Part shown: piece after piece, positions 19,781 to 46,683 of the stretch
Position numbering within the stretch: position 1 is the first letter of the stretch
Layout of the letters: each line of letters opens with the position of its first letter
Assembly: GCA_964014335.1 (NCBI GenBank)
Contig: CAXGZT010000001.1
Coordinates: 926 to 64,925 of the forward strand
Reading direction: 5' to 3'
DNA: 64,000 nucleotides
From: an uncultured Campylobacterales bacterium
GTDB lineage: Bacteria; Campylobacterota; Campylobacteria; Campylobacterales; Sulfurimonadaceae
Notes under the pieces: model-generated
What the model saw: only the letters and a program-made list of their open reading frames with translations
The model's database searches: none
Told to the model about the DNA's origin: nothing
Program-made: the position numbers and the translations under genes

Positions 19781-20389
19781 TCAGTTATCTCTATTTAGAC
19801 GCAAGACATAGCCCTTTCCCTGGACCGTGTCGATAAGACCCGTCCCTATACGCTTGCGAAGACGCAGGACAAGGTTACGCAGAGCATGTCCGCGATCCTC
19901 GACGCCGCCCCAGATAACACACTCCAAATAATCATGCGTAAGGGGACGATTGATATTTGTCATAAAGGTATGCATGAGGTTAGACTCTTTTTGACTCAAA
20001 TGAACATCTTCATTATCAATATACAAGACCCTTCCGGAAACATCATATCTGACGTTTTCGCTAAGGTTCAGATGATTGTCATTCATCAGTTTCGAAACTT
20101 TGATATCCAGTTCAAGCAGATCGAAGGGTTTCTTCAAGTAATCATCACAGCCAACCTCATAAGCATTCATGATCGTCTCGATATCGTTATCCCCGCTCAC
20201 CATGATGATAGGGACCTGAGGGTACTTGAGTCGAAGCTCTTTTACTAAAGCGATTCCGCTTGATTGAGAAAGGTTGATATCGATGATGTAAAGATCGTAA
20301 ACGCTCTCTTTGACACCTTCCAAAACGCTGTCTGCATCAATATAATCGTCACAGAGCCAAGCCCTTTCTTCAAAAAAATTATGCATCAA
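19781..20389 (-). CDS. OmpR-family response regulator (start uncertain, possibly ATT near 20434)
   Basis: Receiver domain (LYIIDINL, MVSGDND, DDYLKKPF) plus a winged-helix C-terminus (GKGYVLR). The in-frame upstream codons ALVVEDDTVFLS encode the missing beta1/acidic pocket but contain no ATG, GTG or TTG. Confidence 0.75.
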   Translation of the reverse strand: MMHNFFEERAWLCDDYIDADSVLEGVKESVYDLYIIDINLSQSSGIALVKELRLKYPQVPIIMVSGDNDIETIMNAYEVGCDDYLKKPFDLLELDIKVSKLMNDNHLNLSENVRYDVSGRVLYIDNEDVHLSQKESNLMHTFMTNINRPLTHDYLECVIWGGVEDRGHALRNLVLRLRKRIGTGLIDTVQGKGYVLRLNRDN

Positions 20390-20656
20390 GGATAAAAAAA
20401 CCGTATCATCTTCTACTAGTGCACATCGTCTAATAATCGATCCTTTTGAGAAAAAATCATTTTTAATGCAGTCATTTTATCATAATAGTATAAAGTTGGG
20501 AAGAAGAAGTACCGGGAGGGTAGACCCGGGCACTTTAACATGTAAAAAGTAAATAAATTATCTAGACAGGCGTACAATCGGGGAAAGAGTCACGACCTGT
20601 TTCCAGCCTTAGCATGCATAAGTTGGATGTCAAAATTCTAATACAAAAGAGTTAAT

Positions 20657-20673
20657 AGAGTGTAAATCACTCT
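20657..20673 (-). terminator. Hairpin overlapping the MCP stop codon
   Basis: AGAGTG-N5-CACTCT, followed on the minus strand by T-rich sequence. Confidence 0.45.
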
Positions 20674-38170: not shown

Positions 38171-38202
38171 CTAACACTCGGCTAACACAGCTACGTCATA
38201 CT
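38171..38202 (+). promoter_or_regulatory. Direct-repeat operator + -10 box (promoter of peptide genes 1-2)
   Basis: CTAACAC-TCGG-CTAACAC-N8-CATACT. Same architecture as 38726, 39219 and 43267(-). Confidence 0.6.
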
Positions 38203-38231
38203 GCCTCATCCAAATATTAAGAGGAACAAAC

Positions 38232-38366
38232 ATGAAAAAAAGTATCGCAGTGATTTCATTATTGATCGCATTCAGTTCGAGCGCATTCGCTCATCACATG
38301 GCAGTATATGACGGTGCCGGTATCAATATCCCGGACTCTTCTCCGCACTTGGACATGGTATTTTAG
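38232..38366 (+). CDS. Secreted mini-peptide precursor 1 (signal peptide + 24-aa HHM...HxxM peptide)
   Basis: MKKSIAVISLLIAFSSSAFA|HHMAVYDGAGINIPDSSPHLDMVF. AGAGGA SD. Below the ORF-track size cutoff. Confidence 0.8.
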   Translation: MKKSIAVISLLIAFSSSAFAHHMAVYDGAGINIPDSSPHLDMVF

Positions 38367-38420
38367 ATCCTGTTCTTAATACAGAAATAAAAACGTAAAT
38401 TTTAAAACAAGGAAACGAAA

Positions 38421-38555
38421 ATGAAAAAAAGTATCGCAGTAATTACATTATTAATCGCATTCGGTTCGAGCGCATTTGCTCATCACATGGCAGTATATGA
38501 GGATGCAGGTATCAATATCCCGGACTCCTCTCCGCATTTGCTAATGGTATTTTAA
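38421..38555 (+). CDS. Secreted mini-peptide precursor 2
   Basis: MKKSIAVITLLIAFGSSAFA|HHMAVYEDAGINIPDSSPHLLMVF. AAGGAAA SD. The mature part is identical to peptide 5 despite 10 synonymous codon differences. Confidence 0.85.
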   Translation: MKKSIAVITLLIAFGSSAFAHHMAVYEDAGINIPDSSPHLLMVF

Positions 38556-38585
38556 TCTCCTCAATTACGCAAAAAACAGAAGAGA

Positions 38586-38605
38586 CAGGCTTTTTATTCA
38601 GCCTG
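38586..38605 (+). terminator. Hairpin after peptide gene 2
   Basis: CAGGCT-ttttattc-AGCCTG, 30 nt after the stop. Confidence 0.4.
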
Positions 38606-38725
38606 CCTCAATCCCCTTATGCTTCTTCATCCGCATATCCTTTTTAAAAACAGACCCTTACACCGAGACAAGCCTGTCGTCGATCAAAACAGGTAAAAAA
38701 CTTATCCGCACCGGCATATCCGAAG

Positions 38726-38757
38726 GTAATATTCGGCTAACACTTCTTCGATATAAT
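38726..38757 (+). promoter_or_regulatory. Direct-repeat operator + -10 box (promoter of the K/Q/G-rich protein gene)
   Basis: GTAATAT-TCGG-CTAACAC-N8-TATAAT. The upstream half-site is degenerate. Confidence 0.5.
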
Positions 38758-38783
38758 ATTTCAACCAACCAAAAGGATTAGAT

Positions 38784-39047
38784 ATGAAAAAAATTATAAT
38801 TGCACTGGCAGCCTTCTCCTTGCTTACTCTTCCTGCAGCCCTTGCAAAAGGTGCCAAGGGCGGCGGCGGAAAAAATGGCGGCGGCATGTATAAAAGCGGC
38901 TCGAAAAACAAAACCCAGAACAAACATGAATATAAGTACCAGTACAAGAGTAAAGGCGATAGTCAGCAAAACCGGTATCAGAACCAAAACCAAGAGAGGA
39001 CTGTACAGGGAAAAAGTAACCAAGAGCAGAAAAAAAGCAAGAAATAA
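38784..39047 (+). CDS. Secreted low-complexity K/Q/N/G-rich mini-protein
   Basis: Signal peptide MKKIIIALAAFSLLTLPAALA, then GAKGGGGKNGGGMYKSGSKNKTQNKHEYKYQYKSK...QEQKKSKK. AAAGGA SD. Confidence 0.65.
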   Translation: MKKIIIALAAFSLLTLPAALAKGAKGGGGKNGGGMYKSGSKNKTQNKHEYKYQYKSKGDSQQNRYQNQNQERTVQGKSNQEQKKSKK

Positions 39048-39080
39048 GGCCTTCTTTCATTTACGTTCAGATTCCCTTTG

Positions 39081-39102
39081 GCCGCAGAGACTCTTCTGTG
39101 GC
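39081..39102 (+). terminator. Hairpin after the K/Q/G-rich gene
   Basis: GCCGCAGAG-actc-TTCTGTGGC, 9 bp with two G-U pairs. Confidence 0.4.
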
Positions 39103-39218
39103 AGCTCTCTTCTAAAAATCCGCGCAATTTATCAAAGTAGCATTTGCCTGCTATCATCATCGAGGATCATAGTCCTTTTCATCCTCCACTCCATTTTCTC
39201 CCTTCCTTATCAGAGGAA

Positions 39219-39250
39219 CTAACACTCGGCTAACGCAAGTACGTCATACT
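39219..39250 (+). promoter_or_regulatory. Direct-repeat operator + -10 box (promoter of peptide genes 3-5)
   Basis: CTAACAC-TCGG-CTAACGC-N8-CATACT. Confidence 0.6.
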
Positions 39251-39277
39251 GACATCACTAAAACAGAAGGAGTAACC

Positions 39278-39412
39278 ATGAAAAAAGGTATTGCAGTTCT
39301 TACGATATTAATCGCATTCGGTTCAAGCGCATTTGCTCTTCCTACATCATCGCATGATGGGATGGGTGTCAAGATTGTTGAGTGGTCTCCGCAATTGCTT
39401 GCAGAGATTTAA
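39278..39412 (+). CDS. Secreted mini-peptide precursor 3 (divergent mature part)
   Basis: MKKGIAVLTILIAFGSSAFA|LPTSSHDGMGVKIVEWSPQLLAEI. AAGGAG SD. It keeps the signal peptide, one HxxM and the SP.L core. Confidence 0.7.
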   Translation: MKKGIAVLTILIAFGSSAFALPTSSHDGMGVKIVEWSPQLLAEI

Positions 39413-39449
39413 AAAAACAGAAATTCAAACATATCATAAAGGAAATATA

Positions 39450-39584
39450 ATGAAAAAAAGTATCGCAATCATTACGATGTTGGCAGCACTAAGTTCGAGC
39501 GCATTCGCTCATCACATGGCACAGTCGGATAGAGCGGGTGTTAATATCCCAAGCTGGTCTCCACATTTATCGATGGTCTTTTAA
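39450..39584 (+). CDS. Secreted mini-peptide precursor 4
   Basis: MKKSIAIITMLAALSSSAFA|HHMAQSDRAGVNIPSWSPHLSMVF. AAGGAAA SD. ORF-track entry 39333-39584 is an over-extension of this gene. Confidence 0.8.
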   Translation: MKKSIAIITMLAALSSSAFAHHMAQSDRAGVNIPSWSPHLSMVF

Positions 39585-39631
39585 GATCATCCAAACGGAT
39601 AGAATTTAAATTAAAAAATAAGGAGATTACA

Positions 39632-39766
39632 ATGAAAAAAAGTATCGCAATTATTACAATGTTAGCAGCACTGAGTTCGAGCGCATTCGCTCATCACATG
39701 GCAGTATATGAAGACGCAGGCATCAATATTCCTGACTCTTCTCCGCATCTGTTGATGGTGTTCTAA
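39632..39766 (+). CDS. Secreted mini-peptide precursor 5
   Basis: MKKSIAIITMLAALSSSAFA|HHMAVYEDAGINIPDSSPHLLMVF. AAGGAG SD. Confidence 0.85.
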   Translation: MKKSIAIITMLAALSSSAFAHHMAVYEDAGINIPDSSPHLLMVF

Positions 39767-39791
39767 TCCCCTCTCTGTTCAGTCGTGTATA

Positions 39792-39813
39792 AAGCAGGCT
39801 TGCATGCCTGCTT
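39792..39813. terminator. Hairpin between the convergent peptide array and the NDH-2-like gene
   Basis: Perfect 8-bp stem AAGCAGGC-ttgcat-GCCTGCTT. Confidence 0.5.
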
Positions 39814-39850
39814 CTCTCCTCTCTCCTAAGAGTCAAGCCCACTGATCGTT

Positions 39851-41071
39851 TCACCCGTCAGATGTTTTTGTACGCTTCTTAAAGCCGGTATTAACCCGCA
39901 GTTTTAGACCTATATAATAGGTATAGGTGATCAGTTTCTTCAACAGATAGGCGCTATATCCTTTTACCTTGATCAGCTTAAACATCTCGCCCACGGCATA
40001 CTTCCCTCCTAAGGCAACGAAGACACCGTCAATAGAAGCGTCGAAAGCTCTAAGCTCTTTGTGCTCAAGCTCTTGCTTGATACACCCTGCCGCATATTCG
40101 GCGCTTCGCTCGGCCGTTTGCGCCGTCGGAGCCAGGATATTCCCTTTGGCGTCACGCAGTTCAACGCAGTCACCGATGGCGAATACGCTCGGTTCGTCGG
40201 GTATGCGCAGATACTTATCGACAAGGAACTGGTTGATACTGTTCTTTTCGACCTCCCGCGAGAGCTCAAAAGAGGGGACTTTGATTCCTCCGGTAAATAT
40301 CATAAAGAAAAAGTCGAGTACTCTGCCGTCTTTAAAATGGACAGTTGAACTCTCAACACGCTCGATAAAGGCATCCGTCATGATCTTGATACCCAGCTCT
40401 TCCAGCCGTTCGGATGTCCTGCTGACGATATAATCACTCATACCGGGCAGGATCCTGGCGCCGGCATCGATAAGGTATATCTTTATCTCCTGAGCCGATG
40501 AACCGATACTTTCCGTATGTTTTTTGATGACATCGGCCATTTCGGCGGCGATCTCGACACCGCTGAGCCCTGCTCCGCCTATAGCGATATTAAGCAGATC
40601 TTTCGCGCTATCCGGAGGACTTTCAATCTTACTGTAGAGGAGTTTTTCGAAGGCTGTTCTGAAGTTAAAGGCGTTACGCAACTTCTTGACACCGAAACTG
40701 TTCTCTCTAAGCCCTTCGATAAAAGAAAAAAAGTTCGTCTCCGCTCCGATGGCAATAATCGCGTAATCATACTGAAGCTTTATGTCCGAAAGGTGGACTC
40801 TCTTCTTCTCAAAGTCCACCAGAGTCACCTCATCATGAACAAACTCTACCCATTTTTTAAAGCCCAGACACCAACTCTTAAGATCAATCGCTACCCCGTG
40901 CAGATCAAAACGCCCGGCAATATAACCGTAGGCCTCGGTTTGAAGATAGTGGTAGGGATGTTTGTCTATCAACGTGATATGCAGACCTTCAATGCCTGCA
41001 AGATGTTCCACCGCACGCAGTCCGCCGTAACCGCCGCCTATGACTATGACCTTTTTCATACGCTTGCCCAT
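39851..41071 (-). CDS. NDH-2-like FAD-dependent pyridine nucleotide-disulfide oxidoreductase
   Basis: N-terminal dinucleotide fold KVIVIGGGYGG, a second GGAGLSGVE fold and FAIGDC. The start may be ATG 41059 (MKKVIV). Confidence 0.8.
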   Translation of the reverse strand: MGKRMKKVIVIGGGYGGLRAVEHLAGIEGLHITLIDKHPYHYLQTEAYGYIAGRFDLHGVAIDLKSWCLGFKKWVEFVHDEVTLVDFEKKRVHLSDIKLQYDYAIIAIGAETNFFSFIEGLRENSFGVKKLRNAFNFRTAFEKLLYSKIESPPDSAKDLLNIAIGGAGLSGVEIAAEMADVIKKHTESIGSSAQEIKIYLIDAGARILPGMSDYIVSRTSERLEELGIKIMTDAFIERVESSTVHFKDGRVLDFFFMIFTGGIKVPSFELSREVEKNSINQFLVDKYLRIPDEPSVFAIGDCVELRDAKGNILAPTAQTAERSAEYAAGCIKQELEHKELRAFDASIDGVFVALGGKYAVGEMFKLIKVKGYSAYLLKKLITYTYYIGLKLRVNTGFKKRTKTSDG

Positions 41072-41201
41072 TAAGTTTTATACGATTATGTCTAAATAGA
41101 GATTAAAGCGTGTTGTAGTCTTGTACGAAGAGGTGCAGGACCCAGCTGTGACTTCCTAAACCGGAAGTCATGCTCTGCGTCTGTTTTGAAAGATCTGCTT
41201 A

Positions 41202-43214
41202 TTAGAAACGGTAACGAAGGTTAGCGTAGATGTAACGTCCAGGTTCGTTAAGCAGCATGATGTCATTACCGCCACCAGATGCCAAAAGCGTAAGGTCCTG
41301 ATAAGTATTGGAAACTGCATACGTGTGGTCAAAGACATTATCCATACCCAGAGTGATATCAAACCCCTTCGTCAGATCTCTGTTCCACTTGATATTGGCG
41401 ATCGCATAACCGGAAATAGCCTGTTCGCCGTTGTCTTCATCAAAGTCACTCCAGTTGTCAGCTGCGATCACTTCAAGCTTTGTACTTGTCATATCCGTAT
41501 CATAGTTAAGAGCTGCATTTACCTTTAACGGTGGAATCTCTGCGAGATCTCTATCAGTCTGCCCGCTAAGAGGGGCATCTTTTTTACCGCGCTGATAAGC
41601 CAGGCCTGCATCGAACGAGAGTGCATCAGAAGCTGCATAAAAAGCATTAAACTCAGCACCATATACTTTTGCATCCACATTTTCGAACTTGTTAATCATA
41701 GGATTTGTTGCTCTGTAAACAATAAAATCCTTTAACCATGAGTGGAATACTTTTATTTTTGCATACGCATTTTCATACTGTTTTTTGGCACCTAAGTCGA
41801 TCTCATAGTTTTTTGTCTGGTCTAGGTTTGGTGTACCGACAAGTGTACCACCTCCCATACGGCTTATAAAATATAGTTCCCTTGCATCTGGTACACGAGA
41901 TGATTTACCTGCTCCGATAAAGTATTGTGTTGTCTCGTCTGCGTTATATGTAACGAATGCATATCCATTCAACGAACTATAATCATTGTCTTGTTCTGTT
42001 CCAGAAGTATCAATCGAAGTATCATCATAACGAAGACCTGCATCAAGGTCCACTTGACCAAAACTCTGTTCAAGCTTAGCAAATACAGCTATATTGTCTG
42101 TGTCTACGTCATCAATACTTTTTAGCCCAGTAGCTACATGGTCAACAATATATTCGCCATCCCAATTTCTTCGGCTTGCATCTAACCCTACTGTTATGTC
42201 TGCTTCACCAAGTTCCATTAAGTTTTTCAACTTAAGTCCGTCAACAGATGTCGTCAATGAACTAACTACATCCCCCATTATAGCTGTCGATTTTCTATAT
42301 CTGTTGGACATTGGATGGTCGACTTCAGAATGATAGGCTTGAAAGTCAAGCTTTTTAGAGAGTGAGCCCATATCTGTAATCGAATACTCAAAATTATAGA
42401 TATCTGAGTCATCATAAAGTGCATCCATCTTGCTCGAAGGGTACAGAACATCGTCACTACGATTCGCCGTATAACTTAGTCTCAACTCTTGATTGTCCGT
42501 CGGATTAAAGAAAAGTTTACCCATAAAGGTCATCTTGTCAAAGGCTTCCATATCTCTATTTTGAGGCTTGTAAGCCGTACCAGCTATTGATGTCCCTTCC
42601 ACATAATTATCAACCTGATCAGCCAAGGTATTTCCATCCCCGTCTTTATACTGATCGCTTGACTCTTTTGAAGCACCAAGAAGAACACGAACCTTATCTG
42701 TCCCGCCGCTTGCCGTAGCAGAGACTTTTTTATAGTTGAAACTTCCCGCATTCAGGTTCACTTCACCTGAGAACTCTTGAGTCGGTTTTTTTGTCTTGAT
42801 ATCGACTAAACCGCTCAGTGTACCGAAGTTTTCAACATCGTAAGGACCTGTCGTGATCTCTACGCTTTCTATATTGTTTGTCAAAATATGGGAGGTTGGC
42901 GGGTCCATTCTGTTTGGACAGGCACCGTAGGTCTTTGTCCCGTCGGCCACGATATTGATATTGTCTTTTTTCTGTCCGCGCAGGATGATATCGTTCGCGA
43001 TGCCGCTGCGTCTTACCAGGGAGATACTCGGTACACTCCTCGTCAGTGACTCCGCCAGATCAGCCGACTTCAGCTCTTCCCCGCTGACGTCATTGATCTT
43101 TAGGCTATTGACCGAGGCCTCGATTTGGGCCGGCTCCAACTCAATGGTTTCAGCCAGAAGCATAGGGCTTAAAACCAGTGATAATACGATTGTCTTATTG
43201 AGTAGTTTATTCAT
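41202..43214 (-). CDS. TonB-dependent outer-membrane receptor, OprC/NosA-like (putative copper)
   Basis: Signal peptide, plug region (ILRGQKKDNINIVADG), C-terminal ...ANLRYRF. Carries CxxxM (GACPNRMDPP; Cys 42918-42920, Met 42906-42908) and HxM (DHPM; His 42315-42317, Met 42309-42311). Confidence 0.8.
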   Translation of the reverse strand: MNKLLNKTIVLSLVLSPMLLAETIELEPAQIEASVNSLKINDVSGEELKSADLAESLTRSVPSISLVRRSGIANDIILRGQKKDNINIVADGTKTYGACPNRMDPPTSHILTNNIESVEITTGPYDVENFGTLSGLVDIKTKKPTQEFSGEVNLNAGSFNYKKVSATASGGTDKVRVLLGASKESSDQYKDGDGNTLADQVDNYVEGTSIAGTAYKPQNRDMEAFDKMTFMGKLFFNPTDNQELRLSYTANRSDDVLYPSSKMDALYDDSDIYNFEYSITDMGSLSKKLDFQAYHSEVDHPMSNRYRKSTAIMGDVVSSLTTSVDGLKLKNLMELGEADITVGLDASRRNWDGEYIVDHVATGLKSIDDVDTDNIAVFAKLEQSFGQVDLDAGLRYDDTSIDTSGTEQDNDYSSLNGYAFVTYNADETTQYFIGAGKSSRVPDARELYFISRMGGGTLVGTPNLDQTKNYEIDLGAKKQYENAYAKIKVFHSWLKDFIVYRATNPMINKFENVDAKVYGAEFNAFYAASDALSFDAGLAYQRGKKDAPLSGQTDRDLAEIPPLKVNAALNYDTDMTSTKLEVIAADNWSDFDEDNGEQAISGYAIANIKWNRDLTKGFDITLGMDNVFDHTYAVSNTYQDLTLLASGGGNDIMLLNEPGRYIYANLRYRF

Positions 43215-43235
43215 TATTTATCCTTAATCGGGACA

Positions 43236-43267
43236 ATCATAATGAGCTAGTGTTACAAAAGTGTTAA
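43236..43267 (-). promoter_or_regulatory. Direct-repeat operator + -10 box (promoter of the TonB-dependent receptor)
   Basis: On the minus strand: TTAACAC-TTTT-GTAACAC-N8-TATGAT, 21 nt before the ATG. It overlaps the HK stop codon. Confidence 0.6.
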
Positions 43268-44457
43268 TTTGATTTTTTAAGTTTCAGATCCAGTGTGATT
43301 TCGGTCCCCTTGTTAAGTTCCGAATCAATCTTGATCTCTATACCATACTCCTTGGAGATCATCTCCACGATATTGAGTCCTATCCCAAAGCCGCCGACGC
43401 TCTTATTTGCCCGCTGGTACCGTCCAAAGATTCGTCCGATCTTCTCTTTGGATATCCCTATCCCCGTATCTGCGACCTTTAAAAAGTGTTCTTGAAGCTC
43501 TACTCTTATACTACCGCCGACACGGTTGTACTTGATAGCATTGGAGAGCAGGTTATCGACAAGCCGTCCCAGCTTATTTTTGTCTATCACAATCATCATA
43601 CCCGGCACTATCGATCTCTCCAGGCTCAACTTCTTCTGTTCCATGGCGATCTTGAAATATTCCAACCTCTCTTCAATAAAAACAGAGAGGTCGACCTCCT
43701 CGTCTTTAACCGCTATATCATGATGAAGGACGAGATAGGTCAGATCATTGTAGATATTGGAGATCGTTCTAGAAGCAATATCGATACGGTTTATTTTTCT
43801 CAGCTCTTTGGGCTCCAGCCTGCTCGTATCTATGGTTTCAATATTGGCTATTATGGCGGCTACCGGTGTATTCAGCTCATGCGTCGTATCCTTGATAAAG
43901 TTATCCAAGAGCTCTATAGACTCTTTCATCGGACGCAGGAAAAGCCGCATCAGATACATGCCTACGGAGATCAACGCGACAAGCAGAGCTGCCCCGTAGG
44001 TGATGATATCACGAATGGCGCTGGAAAACCACAAACCGTCATCCTTCGTCTCATACACCAGGTATTTGATCCCCTTTTTGTTTTTTTCGATCTGCAGAAC
44101 AAAATGGATATAGCCTTTTGAGAGTCCGATCATCCTGTCCAGGTTCACATCATCGCTTTTCATATACGAAGCGATCTGCTTTTTGTGGCTGTCATACACG
44201 GCTGTATTATAGGCGATGTCCTGGGGAAACTTCTCTCTGCTGCTTAAGTAGGTGTATCGCAGAAGAGGATAGTAGTTTTCATTGACCAGCTGCATTGAGA
44301 GACGGTGTTCGGAGAGCATCACCTCTTTTGCATTCGTATAATAGATACTGCCCAGGAGAGTCAGAATCAGCAGAGACATGACCGTGTACAGGAGTAAAAA
44401 AGCCCTTAACGACTTGGACTCAGGAGTATTTATACCCATAGCGCTTAATGCTAACAA
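43264..44457 (-). CDS. Sensor histidine kinase (two TM segments, periplasmic loop)
   Basis: H-box HELNTPVAAI, N-box LLSNAIKYN, G-boxes DTGIGIS and GGFGIGLNIV. Start uncertain (44457 or 44439); it overlaps the RR 3' end. Confidence 0.88.
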   Translation of the reverse strand: MLALSAMGINTPESKSLRAFLLLYTVMSLLILTLLGSIYYTNAKEVMLSEHRLSMQLVNENYYPLLRYTYLSSREKFPQDIAYNTAVYDSHKKQIASYMKSDDVNLDRMIGLSKGYIHFVLQIEKNKKGIKYLVYETKDDGLWFSSAIRDIITYGAALLVALISVGMYLMRLFLRPMKESIELLDNFIKDTTHELNTPVAAIIANIETIDTSRLEPKELRKINRIDIASRTISNIYNDLTYLVLHHDIAVKDEEVDLSVFIEERLEYFKIAMEQKKLSLERSIVPGMMIVIDKNKLGRLVDNLLSNAIKYNRVGGSIRVELQEHFLKVADTGIGISKEKIGRIFGRYQRANKSVGGFGIGLNIVEMISKEYGIEIKIDSELNKGTEITLDLKLKKSN

Positions 44458-45082
44458 TCCTATCCTTTCCGATGACTTTGCGAAGGTTTTTGATATAGGT
44501 CCTCAGCGAAGTGGGACTCGGCTCTTCATCATAAGCCCATAGATGCTGATTGATAACCTCATGTGTTATCTGCGTATTCGCATGCTGCAAAAAGAGCTTG
44601 AGCAGAAGCTTCTCCTTCTGGTTCAGAGGTACTTTCACGCCCCCGTCCAACAGCTCATCCGCCTGAATATCATAAGAGAGGTTCTCATCAATCTCCAGCC
44701 TCTCCTTTGCATTATGATAGAAGTTTCGTTTTAAGATATTGTTGATGCGAAGAAGAAGCTCTTCAAGAGAAAAAGGCTTTCGGATATAGTCGTCACAGCC
44801 GCTTTCAAAGCCGCGGGAAAGATCATCCGTGGAGTCAAGCGAAGTGATGAAGATCGCGGGGACCGTTGCACCCCTCTCGCGCGAAGACTTGAGCAGTTCA
44901 AAGCCGTTGGGAGAGGGAACATTCACATCCAGCAGAAGAAGATCATAGTTTTTTTCATATATACACTCTTCTGCACGCTTACCCTCATAAACAGATTCAA
45001 CATCAAAGCCCTCATCGCTTAAGAACTCTTCGATTGTCTCATTGAGATTGACATCATCTTCCAAAAGAAGGATTTTTTTCAT
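44420..45082 (-). CDS. OmpR-family response regulator
   Basis: MKKILLLEDD, LLLLDVNVP (phospho-Asp) and DDYIRKPF. Winged-helix C-terminus (LRTYIKNLRKVIG...YGYKY). Confidence 0.9.
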   Translation of the reverse strand: MKKILLLEDDVNLNETIEEFLSDEGFDVESVYEGKRAEECIYEKNYDLLLLDVNVPSPNGFELLKSSRERGATVPAIFITSLDSTDDLSRGFESGCDDYIRKPFSLEELLLRINNILKRNFYHNAKERLEIDENLSYDIQADELLDGGVKVPLNQKEKLLLKLFLQHANTQITHEVINQHLWAYDEEPSPTSLRTYIKNLRKVIGKDRIVSIKRYGYKYS

Positions 45083-45129: not shown

Positions 45130-46524
45130 TTACAGTTCACATTTTTGGAGGAAAAGTGCCATCGTAAACTTCGTTTTGCTTTTCTTGTCATACGAAAAGG
45201 TATCCTCCGATTGTTGGGAGAGGGCCTCTGTCCGTCCCATCGTCTTGAGTCGCCAGCTTATCGTATCGCTGATTTCCGCCTTGGCCATGTTTTTTGGATC
45301 ACGTACAAAGTAGATTCTGTCGTCATTCCTCGCCTTAACCCCGTAGCCGAACATCCTTTCCCCGGCCTCTTCTACGGTAAAGATGACCTCCCCTTCCAAA
45401 AGGACCTGTTGTCCGGAAAGCTGGTCCGGGTTAATATATGCGCCGCAGACCTTCTTTGCTTTGGTACGGCGTATAGCCTCTGCCTTTTGGGCGATTTTTT
45501 GTTTTCTATACTCCTCTTGTCTGCGTGCTTTTTCTCTGGCAAGGGCCTCTGCCTTGGCCAGATTCAGTGCTGCCGTCTTCCTCTCTTTCTCTTTTTTTGC
45601 CCTCAACAGGGCTTCCTGACGTGCCGCCGCTTCCTCTGCTGCCGCTTGTGCTTCTGCCCTATGTATCCAATATTCAGGGTTTTGAAAAGAGAAGAAACGT
45701 TCCTCTTCCTGCAGGGGAAGCTTGTGTTCATCTATAAAAGCCATCTCCTCCCTCGTCGGTTCGTTTTGTAAAAGAGGGAAAAGAAATACAAAATTCTCGG
45801 TATCCTCATCTTCGATAAACTCTTCAATCGTCACTTCCATGCCCGATTGAATCTTGGCGTTGTCCAAAGCGAGTCTGCGCAGTTCCGCCAGGTACTCCAA
45901 CGCCAACGGACCTTTTGTGATCTCCGACTCATCCAGAAGATGTCCTATCGCCTCGTTCCTGTGCGCCTCATTCATATAAGGAATACACCTCTCTTCGAGA
46001 AAGGCGAAGGGCGGCTGCTGGCGTTTTATGACAGAGAGGCAGATAGAATCAAAATCATATACGGGCGTACCGAACTGTGCATAAAAACTCGGACGCGTAA
46101 AAAACTCTCTCTTCATGAACTCCCCTGCACTATGGGGAGTATATTTTTGCATATGGAAAACGGAGATAGCCTCATAGCTGATTCCTAAGGCTTTCCACTG
46201 AGTCGCTTCTTTGGCATTCACTCCAAGCCTTGCCCATTTCGGATACTCCCTATTCTCTATGCCCTCTTCTTTCCATGCTTTCTCTTCCGCATTGTTTAAG
46301 ATCTTGCCCTTGTATACATATGCACTTGGGTCATCCGCACTTTTATGTGCCGGACCCTTCTCCTGCTTCTTTAAAGAGCTCCCGTCTTGGAGAAAACGCT
46401 GCTTATGTCCTGCTTCGAGCTTGGCCAGCATGGCTGCCCTTGACTTCTCTTCGGGTGTCGGTTCCCCGCCGCAACCGGCTAGGAACAATAAAGCGGATAC
46501 AGAGAAAAAAAATAGTTGTTTCAT
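45130..46524 (-). CDS. Lipoprotein with coiled-coil region, function unknown
   Basis: Lipobox LFLAGC. Charged Ala/Lys/Glu-rich coiled-coil segment (AAEEAAARQEALLRAKKEKERK...). Lies 48 nt upstream of the RR gene on the same strand. Confidence 0.6.
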   Translation of the reverse strand: MKQLFFFSVSALLFLAGCGGEPTPEEKSRAAMLAKLEAGHKQRFLQDGSSLKKQEKGPAHKSADDPSAYVYKGKILNNAEEKAWKEEGIENREYPKWARLGVNAKEATQWKALGISYEAISVFHMQKYTPHSAGEFMKREFFTRPSFYAQFGTPVYDFDSICLSVIKRQQPPFAFLEERCIPYMNEAHRNEAIGHLLDESEITKGPLALEYLAELRRLALDNAKIQSGMEVTIEEFIEDEDTENFVFLFPLLQNEPTREEMAFIDEHKLPLQEEERFFSFQNPEYWIHRAEAQAAAEEAAARQEALLRAKKEKERKTAALNLAKAEALAREKARRQEEYRKQKIAQKAEAIRRTKAKKVCGAYINPDQLSGQQVLLEGEVIFTVEEAGERMFGYGVKARNDDRIYFVRDPKNMAKAEISDTISWRLKTMGRTEALSQQSEDTFSYDKKSKTKFTMALFLQKCEL

Positions 46525-46683
46525 GCGTGGCCTTTTGATTCATACATTATAGTATAAATCTAAAAAGTTACGGAAAAATTAATGCAAAGATGGGAAGAAG
46601 ATGAGATAAGCCTATACGAGGGGAGCAAATCAATGAGGATGAAGGTCCATTGGCTATAATTCATAAAAAATCAAAGAAGTTTT

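Follow-up and report, generated by a model that had tools for sequence, protein, structure and literature searches.

A paired TAACAC direct repeat at an OprC-type receptor locus in Sulfurimonadaceae as a probable operator for an OmpR/PhoB-family two-component system

The 64-kb stretch of contig CAXGZT010000001.1 analyzed here (the window) comes from an organism placed in the Sulfurimonadaceae and contains a paired direct repeat, (N)TAACAC-N4-(N)TAACAC, in front of four transcription units at a receptor locus. The receptor gene (41202-43214, minus strand) encodes a TonB-dependent receptor of the OprC (copper) type with the domains PF07715 and PF00593, in keeping with a plug and a 22-strand barrel. 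Upstream of it on the same strand lie the genes for a membrane sensor histidine kinase (HK; 43264-44457), the putative sensor, and an OmpR/PhoB-family response regulator (RR; 44420-45082; PF00072 and PF00486), the proposed operator-binding protein. Directly upstream of this pair is the gene for a conserved 464-residue lipoprotein (45130-46524, minus strand), which is probably part of the same operon, and downstream of the receptor follows an NDH-2-like flavoprotein gene (39851-41071, minus strand). The minus-strand order is lipoprotein, RR, HK, operator, receptor, and NDH-2-like flavoprotein. The plus strand carries peptide genes 1 and 2 (38232-38366 and 38421-38555), each coding for 44 residues with a Sec-type signal, a gene for a secreted low-complexity protein of 87 residues rich in Lys, Gln, Gly, and Asn (38784-39047; the K/Q/G-rich protein), and peptide genes 3, 4, and 5 (39278-39412, 39450-39584, and 39632-39766). 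The peptides, the K/Q/G-rich protein, and most small secreted members of the wider regulon described below gave no family match in Pfam or NCBIfam.

All four operator sites share one layout, made up of a 7-bp half-site, 4 bp, a second 7-bp half-site, eight further base pairs (N8), and a -10 hexamer. The site of the peptide 1-2 unit (38171-38202, plus strand) reads CTAACAC TCGG CTAACAC AGCTACGT CATACT, with half-sites at 38171-38177 and 38182-38188 and the -10 at 38197-38202. The site of the K/Q/G-rich protein (38726-38757, plus strand) reads GTAATAT TCGG CTAACAC TTCTTCGA TATAAT, its distal half-site being degenerate and its proximal one intact, and that of the peptide 3-5 unit (39219-39250, plus strand) reads CTAACAC TCGG CTAACGC AAGTACGT CATACT. 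The receptor site (43267-43236, minus strand), TTAACAC TTTT GTAACAC TAGCTCAT TATGAT, has the stop codon of the HK gene (43266-43264) within its distal half-site. Sequences and coordinates are exactly those given in the initial annotation, and so is the half-site period of 11 bp, which was found at all four sites and likewise at the related sites examined in other loci. The -10 lies at N8 in every case, the repeat overlaps the -35 position, and an AGGA-type ribosome-binding site precedes each of the four ATG codons, which follow the end of the -10 by 29, 26, 27, and 21 nt in the order listed above.

The motif does not occur at random frequency in the window. The pattern TAACAC-N5-TAACAC with at most one mismatch gave three matches in 64 kb against 0.13 expected, and none of 100 shuffles reached three; at three mismatches the same pattern falls to chance level (56 matches against 50 expected). 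The full architecture was defined as a repeat with at most two mismatches, a -10-like hexamer at N7-9, a ribosome-binding site and ATG within 12-45 nt, and an open reading frame of at least 40 residues. It was found four times, compared with a mean of 0.01 and a maximum of one in 200 block shuffles. Furthermore, a position weight matrix (PWM) trained solely on sites from outside the window gave the four sites ranks 1, 2, 4, and 5 among its matches in the window, with the receptor site on top at a score of 26.9. A generic promoter and terminator scan of the sequence yielded nothing informative.

To follow the operator beyond the window, relatives of the receptor were searched, which gave 80 loci (L numbers below denote loci from this and the other searches). 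Every Campylobacterota locus with usable upstream sequence, 27 in total from Sulfurimonadaceae, Sulfurovum, Arcobacteraceae, and Sulfurospirillum, carries TTAACA(C)-N4-(K)TAACA(C), which precedes the ATG of the receptor gene by about 55 nt. When 14 of these promoters, drawn from Sulfurimonadaceae, Sulfurovum, and one 'Helicobacteraceae' metagenome-assembled genome, were aligned, invariance was limited to the columns TTAA.AC and TAACAC and to two positions of the -10, at a mean column identity of 55%. The -10 lies at N8-N9 in the receptor promoters of Sulfurimonadaceae, and two Sulfurovum promoters have a consensus TATAAT 11 nt away. The motif is thus a genuine phylogenetic footprint. Gammaproteobacterial receptor orthologues (L019-L066; Sedimenticola and other sulfur oxidisers) have, in place of the TAACAC repeat, a sigma-54-type element, TGGCAT-N5-TTGCW, about 60-90 nt upstream of the receptor ATG, which was seen in at least 12 loci. 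The receptor is the same in these loci and the regulatory logic is different.

The gene order around the receptor is conserved as well. Loci L003-L009 share the succession MFS (major facilitator superfamily) gene, RDD protein, lipoprotein, RR, HK, operator, receptor, variable cargo, and two conserved genes, and in L001 and L002, which are cut at a contig end, the HK-proximal part of this synteny is visible. The variable slot lies between the receptor and a conserved 152-residue gene (39800-43214 in the window, compared with L001-L009). In the window it holds the NDH-2-like gene, the five peptides, and the K/Q/G-rich protein; elsewhere it holds three peptides (L004), a homologue of the K/Q/G-rich protein alone, beside the receptor (L006), or nothing (L001-L003). 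The cargo in these relatives has operators of its own: CTAACAC tccg CTAACCT N8 CATACT before the peptides of L004, and CTAACGT ttca CTAACAC taatccta TATAAT before the K/Q/G-rich homologue of L006. Sites orthologous to the operator at 39219-39250 are seen in L004 and L188. Sulfurovum shows the arrangement RR-HK-[op]-DUF2202-[op]-TonB-[op]-receptor, where [op] stands for the operator, and in other loci an ExbB-like gene (identified by eye) and a second receptor also bear it.

This comparison removes one gene from the proposed regulon. The NDH-2-like gene had been considered a probable member, and its membership is unsupported: the gene is absent from every orthologous locus. The sole motif upstream of it (41116-41085, minus strand), ACAACAC GCTT TAATCTC N8 CATAAT, has a poor proximal half-site and is outside the top 25 PWM matches in the window.

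Two of the other loci show further arrangements. At L006 (6335-6660), the sequence CTCTTACAC ATTA TTCACAC N8 TTTATAAT is followed by about 300 nt that look structured and apparently do not code for protein. This stretch in turn precedes the promoter of the lipoprotein-RR-HK operon, and nothing comparable exists in the window. At L081 (4368-7011), a receptor-type operator, TTAACAC TTTT GTAACAT, is followed by two genes and then a peptide gene. The first of the two encodes a 448-residue polytopic membrane protein with a C-terminal cytochrome c domain and the second a 398-residue membrane protein; apart from the cytochrome c domain, neither received a family assignment.

The peptide genes allow the association between operator and target to be followed across many unrelated contexts. 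The family (peptide sequence HHMAVYEDAGINIPDSSPHLLMVF) has about 60 database relatives, all of about 44 residues and confined to Sulfurimonas- and Sulfuricurvum-like organisms. The predicted mature form of peptides 1 and 2 is HHMAVY..SPHL.MVF, with His-His-Met at the predicted new N-terminus. In the family alignment, H21, H22, M23, H39, and M42 are at least 90% conserved, and the mature part is better conserved than the signal-peptide core, which varies. Outside the window, the genes are mostly scattered singles, each following CT[AT]ACAC-N4-CT[AT]ACAC-N8-[CT]A[TC]AAT. Among 22 distinct peptide genes, the operator is found at every singleton and at the first gene of each cluster, not at internal cluster genes, and 15 non-identical peptide promoters keep CTWACAC-N4-CTWACAC-N8-(-10), with the -10 ending 26-29 nt before the ATG. 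Peptides 2, 4, and 5 of the window have no operator of their own, and this absence at internal genes supports two operons, one of peptides 1-2 and one of peptides 3-5. The main family shares the operator with a sister family (HHPSPSDTAGGNISSNSGHLNLVF) and with a variant that lacks His-His (the type of peptide 3). One peptide gene lies beside pst/phoU (L083) and another after a CHAD-domain gene (L085), and a phosphate-starvation (Pho) reading was considered and set aside, as these are single contexts among many unrelated ones. The peptide family is undescribed and is the more novel element, while the operator and the regulatory mechanism are of a conventional type.

The proposal of one OmpR/PhoB-type operator for four units is supported by the footprint in 14 promoters, the association with peptide genes, the L006 homologue, and the synteny of RR, HK, operator, and receptor. 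It can also be followed in metagenomes, where the pattern CTWACAC-N4-CTWACAC-N8-YAYAMT matched at least 120 loci. Among the matches listed, to which the following counts refer, about half are microsatellite-like repeats and 59 are promoter-like, with a ribosome-binding site and ATG 18-42 nt after the -10. Signal-peptide-like N-termini are present in 52 of the 59 downstream proteins, which include His-His peptides, the sister family already mentioned, secreted proteins of about 80 residues, His/Met/Gln-rich proteins, a Met-rich LTXXQ (Spy/CpxP-like) protein, and, divergent from an RR-HK pair in L191, a multicopper oxidase with a Met-rich insert. DUF2202 lipoproteins were counted 16 times by regular expression, and the representatives scanned were confirmed by Pfam. 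Several of them have conserved VGCM and GCC..G..CHPEYP motifs, and several contigs show [op]-DUF2202-RR-HK on one strand. The lipoproteins in L093, L106, L113, and L012 read EVGCMVEV and GCC.LG..(Y/F)CHPEYP, some with long His-rich tails; these motifs and tails suggest soft-metal binding. To describe the regulon as local is too narrow, since this operator type is used across the Campylobacterota.

A link to copper comes mainly from the receptor. Its best relative in the PDB is OprC (4e-30, about 108 bits), whose copper ligands are Cys143, Met147, His323, and Met325 (PMC8610252). The motifs GAC-PNR-M and (D/E)H-P-M are kept in 80 of 80 orthologues and are the counterparts of these four ligands (CxxxM in the plug and HxM in the barrel); in the local alignment, DHPM falls on OprC His323/Met325. 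The receptor scores 212 bits against the TIGR01778 cut-off of 472, and is therefore a distant member of the OprC/NosA-type family at best. We also count towards copper that the same operator type stands before Met-rich, His/Met-rich, and Cys/Met/His-bearing exported proteins and the multicopper oxidase. Overall, copper is somewhat better placed than an even bet to be the signal.

The metagenome matches listed also link the operator to two-component genes. An OmpR-type RR/HK or receptor homologue is present in the same short contig in 32 of 59 promoter-like cases versus 3 of 57 repeat-like ones (Fisher's exact test, p = 3e-9; total lengths of the two sets similar). The RR consists of receiver and winged-helix Trans_reg_C domains, and among solved structures DrrD, BasR/PmrA, and M. 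tuberculosis PhoP are nearest to it. These relatives bind direct repeats as head-to-tail dimers. With the PmrA and PhoB models, the score of the RR stays well under the curated cut-offs.

Taken together, we read the repeat as a class II activator site in the style of PhoB, used by the adjacent two-component system of the OmpR family, which probably senses copper status, and assign this whole reading a probability of roughly 70%. More specifically, (N)TAACAC-N4-(N)TAACAC at a fixed 8 bp upstream of a sigma-70-type -10 would be the site for a head-to-tail dimer of an OmpR/PhoB-family RR. The most likely regulator would be the RR that adjoins the receptor, phosphorylated by its membrane kinase, and that this RR binds the operator is very probable. 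Bound at about -38 to -21, it would recruit RNA polymerase in the class II manner of PhoB at the pho box and switch on four units together, namely the two peptide units (1-2 and 3-5), the K/Q/G-rich protein, and the OprC-type receptor. Periplasmic copper status would be the likely input, and the output would consist of exported proteins grouped around a copper receptor. What the sequences establish is the repeat with its spacing, its excess over chance, its conservation, and its company of two-component, receptor, and peptide genes; the choice of regulator, activation as the sign, and the copper signal are inferred.

Several observations weigh against this interpretation. The three peptide and K/Q/G sites score 10-14 bits with the PWM, inside the range of shuffle maxima (10.8-17.8), and the significance of the sites derives from the combined architecture and conservation, not from single-site scores. 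Compared with the CopRS/CusRS families (TIGR01387/TIGR01386), the RR reaches 115 bits against a cut-off of 279 and the HK 77.8 against 292.6, and the HK sensor domain has no obvious metal-binding signature apart from a conserved EHRLSM. Autoregulation was considered and rejected, as the sequence in front of the lipoprotein-RR-HK operon (about 46540-46600) contains TATACTATAAT and no repeat. The contrast between promoter-like and repeat-like metagenome contigs is inflated by an imperfect control, since the 57 repeat-like contigs are in part, and many of them probably, non-bacterial DNA. Furthermore, the regulators beside similar operators in the metagenome matches are only 33-56% identical to the RR of the window; the motif is thus common to a group of paralogous systems and does not single out one regulator. 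In most Arcobacteraceae receptor loci, the repeat is present and two-component genes are absent within 10 kb, so the two do not always adjoin. Finally, uptake receptors and multicopper oxidases are usually regulated oppositely by copper: the receptor, TonB, and ExbB point to acquisition, whereas multicopper oxidases and Met-rich proteins are usually stress-induced.

The same operator and regulator could work in the opposite sense, with the phosphorylated RR at -38 to -21 blocking RNA polymerase, and sufficient copper would then silence the acquisition regulon (receptor and peptides, with TonB/ExbB in relatives). The site does overlap the core promoter, most orthologue receptor promoters have a consensus TATAAT after a T-rich tract and could be active unaided, and copper stress down-regulates oprC of Pseudomonas through an unknown route (PMC8610252). 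However, a fixed N8 (occasionally N9) phasing over dozens of unrelated promoters is required by a polymerase-contacting activator and not by a repressor, the -10 boxes of the peptide promoters are imperfect (CATACT, CATAAT, TACAAT), and SulR, which binds at a similar position in Sulfurimonas, belongs to a system that activates transcription. We favor activation, with fair confidence, because N8 is kept so strictly in many unrelated promoters and the peptide -10 boxes are imperfect, and regard repression as unlikely. The initial annotation had also seen activation in the replacement of a -35 element by the repeat. As to position, with N8 to the -10, this was correct; as evidence for activation it loses weight. 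Campylobacterota sigma-70 promoters generally have no conserved -35, and because of this a missing -35 is weak evidence for activation.

Activation by the adjacent system has also to be weighed against readings in which that system plays no part. The operator could be real and be bound by a different OmpR-family regulator, either an orphan RR in the window (19781-20389) or one encoded outside it, with the adjacent system controlling something else. Repeats at Arcobacteraceae receptor loci that have no adjacent two-component system, the several paralogous regulators that go with the same motif type, and a candidate site upstream of the orphan regulator all fit this idea. It is made improbable by the RR-HK-operator-receptor order kept in L003-L009 (partially in L001 and L002) and again in Sulfurovum, by the [op]-DUF2202-RR-HK arrangements among metagenome contigs, and by the C-terminal DNA-binding region of the orphan, which, read by eye, differs. 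Chance, or promoter-gene cassettes duplicated without a common regulator, would have to account for 0.01 expected complete architectures and for a motif common to unrelated genes (receptor, K/Q/G-rich protein, TonB, ExbB, DUF2202 proteins, and multicopper oxidase), in which the half-sites are fixed while the spacers vary. Duplication does have in its favor that the sites at 38171 and 39219 are alike through spacer and -10 and belong to paralogous peptide clusters. The CGT kept just before the -10 in peptide promoters might likewise suggest an alternative sigma promoter of the extracytoplasmic function (ECF) type, AAC..CGT; this was rejected, as the receptor promoters have no CGT and an ordinary TATAAT, and an AAC-N18-CGT spacing is unsuitable for ECF promoters. 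We consider this last group of explanations highly improbable.

The orphan regulator lies near an additional repeat. According to the initial annotation, the window had no other paired copy, and there is indeed no fifth full architecture, but a fifth repeat with a -10 at N8 does exist at 20635-20666 (minus strand; TTTACAC TCTA TTAACTC TTTTGTAT TAGAAT; two mismatches). It stands directly after the stop codon of a chemoreceptor gene, with about 240 nt of non-coding sequence between it and the downstream orphan OmpR-type RR. No open reading frame follows directly, and its PWM score of 13.9 is inside the shuffle maxima and alone not significant. A long leader or a small RNA could be transcribed from it as a fifth site; an Rfam scan of the whole window returned one tRNA only and no match near this site. 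The reading frame of the orphan RR itself runs on upstream (20389-20440, minus strand) as IIRRCALVEDDTVFLSLMHNFF, a typical receiver N-terminus, and this extension has no ATG, GTG, or TTG start. The gene may use a non-canonical start codon or be decaying.

The proposed circuit is compact and testable: a single kinase and a single regulator would act through a 32-bp promoter module on four target units. It gives access to the control of an OprC-type receptor, and for oprC in Pseudomonas the mode of regulation is stated to be unknown (PMC8610252). Used as a search key, the operator retrieves mostly unannotated exported proteins in sulfur-oxidising Campylobacterota, and much of its value lies in the regulon that it delimits: 44-residue His-His peptides, DUF2202 lipoproteins with Cys/Met/His motifs, secreted proteins of about 80 residues, and a multicopper oxidase. 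The habitats of these organisms are ones in which sulfide makes copper scarce, yet copper is needed for their respiration and N2O reduction. A more far-reaching and tentative idea, which we hold to be doubtful, is that the operator marks a Campylobacterota-wide copper-acquisition regulon under two-component control, in which the Sec-exported peptides of about 24 residues are ribosomally made copper carriers for the receptor. The peptides, with their invariant-like N-terminal His-His-Met and C-terminal SPHL.M, would then be periplasmic shuttles or chalkophore-like ligands serving the OprC-type receptor, and the system would give an OprC-type copper importer its first defined route of regulation. 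In the literature searched, we found no description of this system, of OprC in Sulfurimonas, or of a link between DUF2202 and copper.

Among known systems, the operator resembles the pho box of PhoB in E. coli and other class II sites (PmrA/BasR and PhoP), which likewise consist of 7-bp direct repeats with a 4-bp gap and an 11-bp period, placed at the -35 position at a fixed short distance to the -10 and bound by a winged-helix regulator. The half-site TAACAC is unlike the PhoB and PmrA boxes, and the targets differ from those of PhoB, PmrA, and PhoP in being a copper-type receptor and secreted peptides.

Within the same phylum, CrdRS of H. pylori (HP1365/HP1364), acting at the crdA promoter, also combines an OmpR-type regulator with a membrane kinase. 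This copper-responsive system activates a secreted copper-resistance protein, and CrdR is reported to need paired AC-rich motifs with the core AACACC-ATTT-CCACAA. This core contains the AACAC of the half-site described here, while the spacing and the second motif could not be aligned with confidence. The known targets of CrdR are the resistance and efflux genes crdAB and czcBA, not an OprC-type importer or 44-residue peptides.

A further comparison is SulRS of Sulfurimonas hydrogeniphila, from the same organism family, whose OmpR-type regulator is encoded beside its target operon. The SulR footprint spans -51 to -17 over TTACA direct repeats, both of which are needed for binding, and SulRS activates transcription of soxABXY1Z1 from starts 22-27 nt before the ATG (PMC12936845), short leaders as in the system studied here. 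Given this footprint and activation, such a mechanism therefore operates in this group. The SulR consensus, TTTAYATTTAKKAGWTACAMTTA, has its repeats about 13 nt apart versus 11 here, and SulRS has sox targets and a thiosulfate signal, whereas the neighbors here are a receptor and a lipoprotein, and no sox genes flank the system.

On the side of the receptor, OprC of P. aeruginosa is a TonB-dependent receptor that shares the four copper ligands with the protein described here. Its gene is paired with PA3789, which is orthologous to the reductase FoxB (PMC8610252), and the receptor gene studied here, which has a redox enzyme gene next downstream, echoes this pairing. What sets the locus studied here apart from that of OprC is an evident two-component operator.

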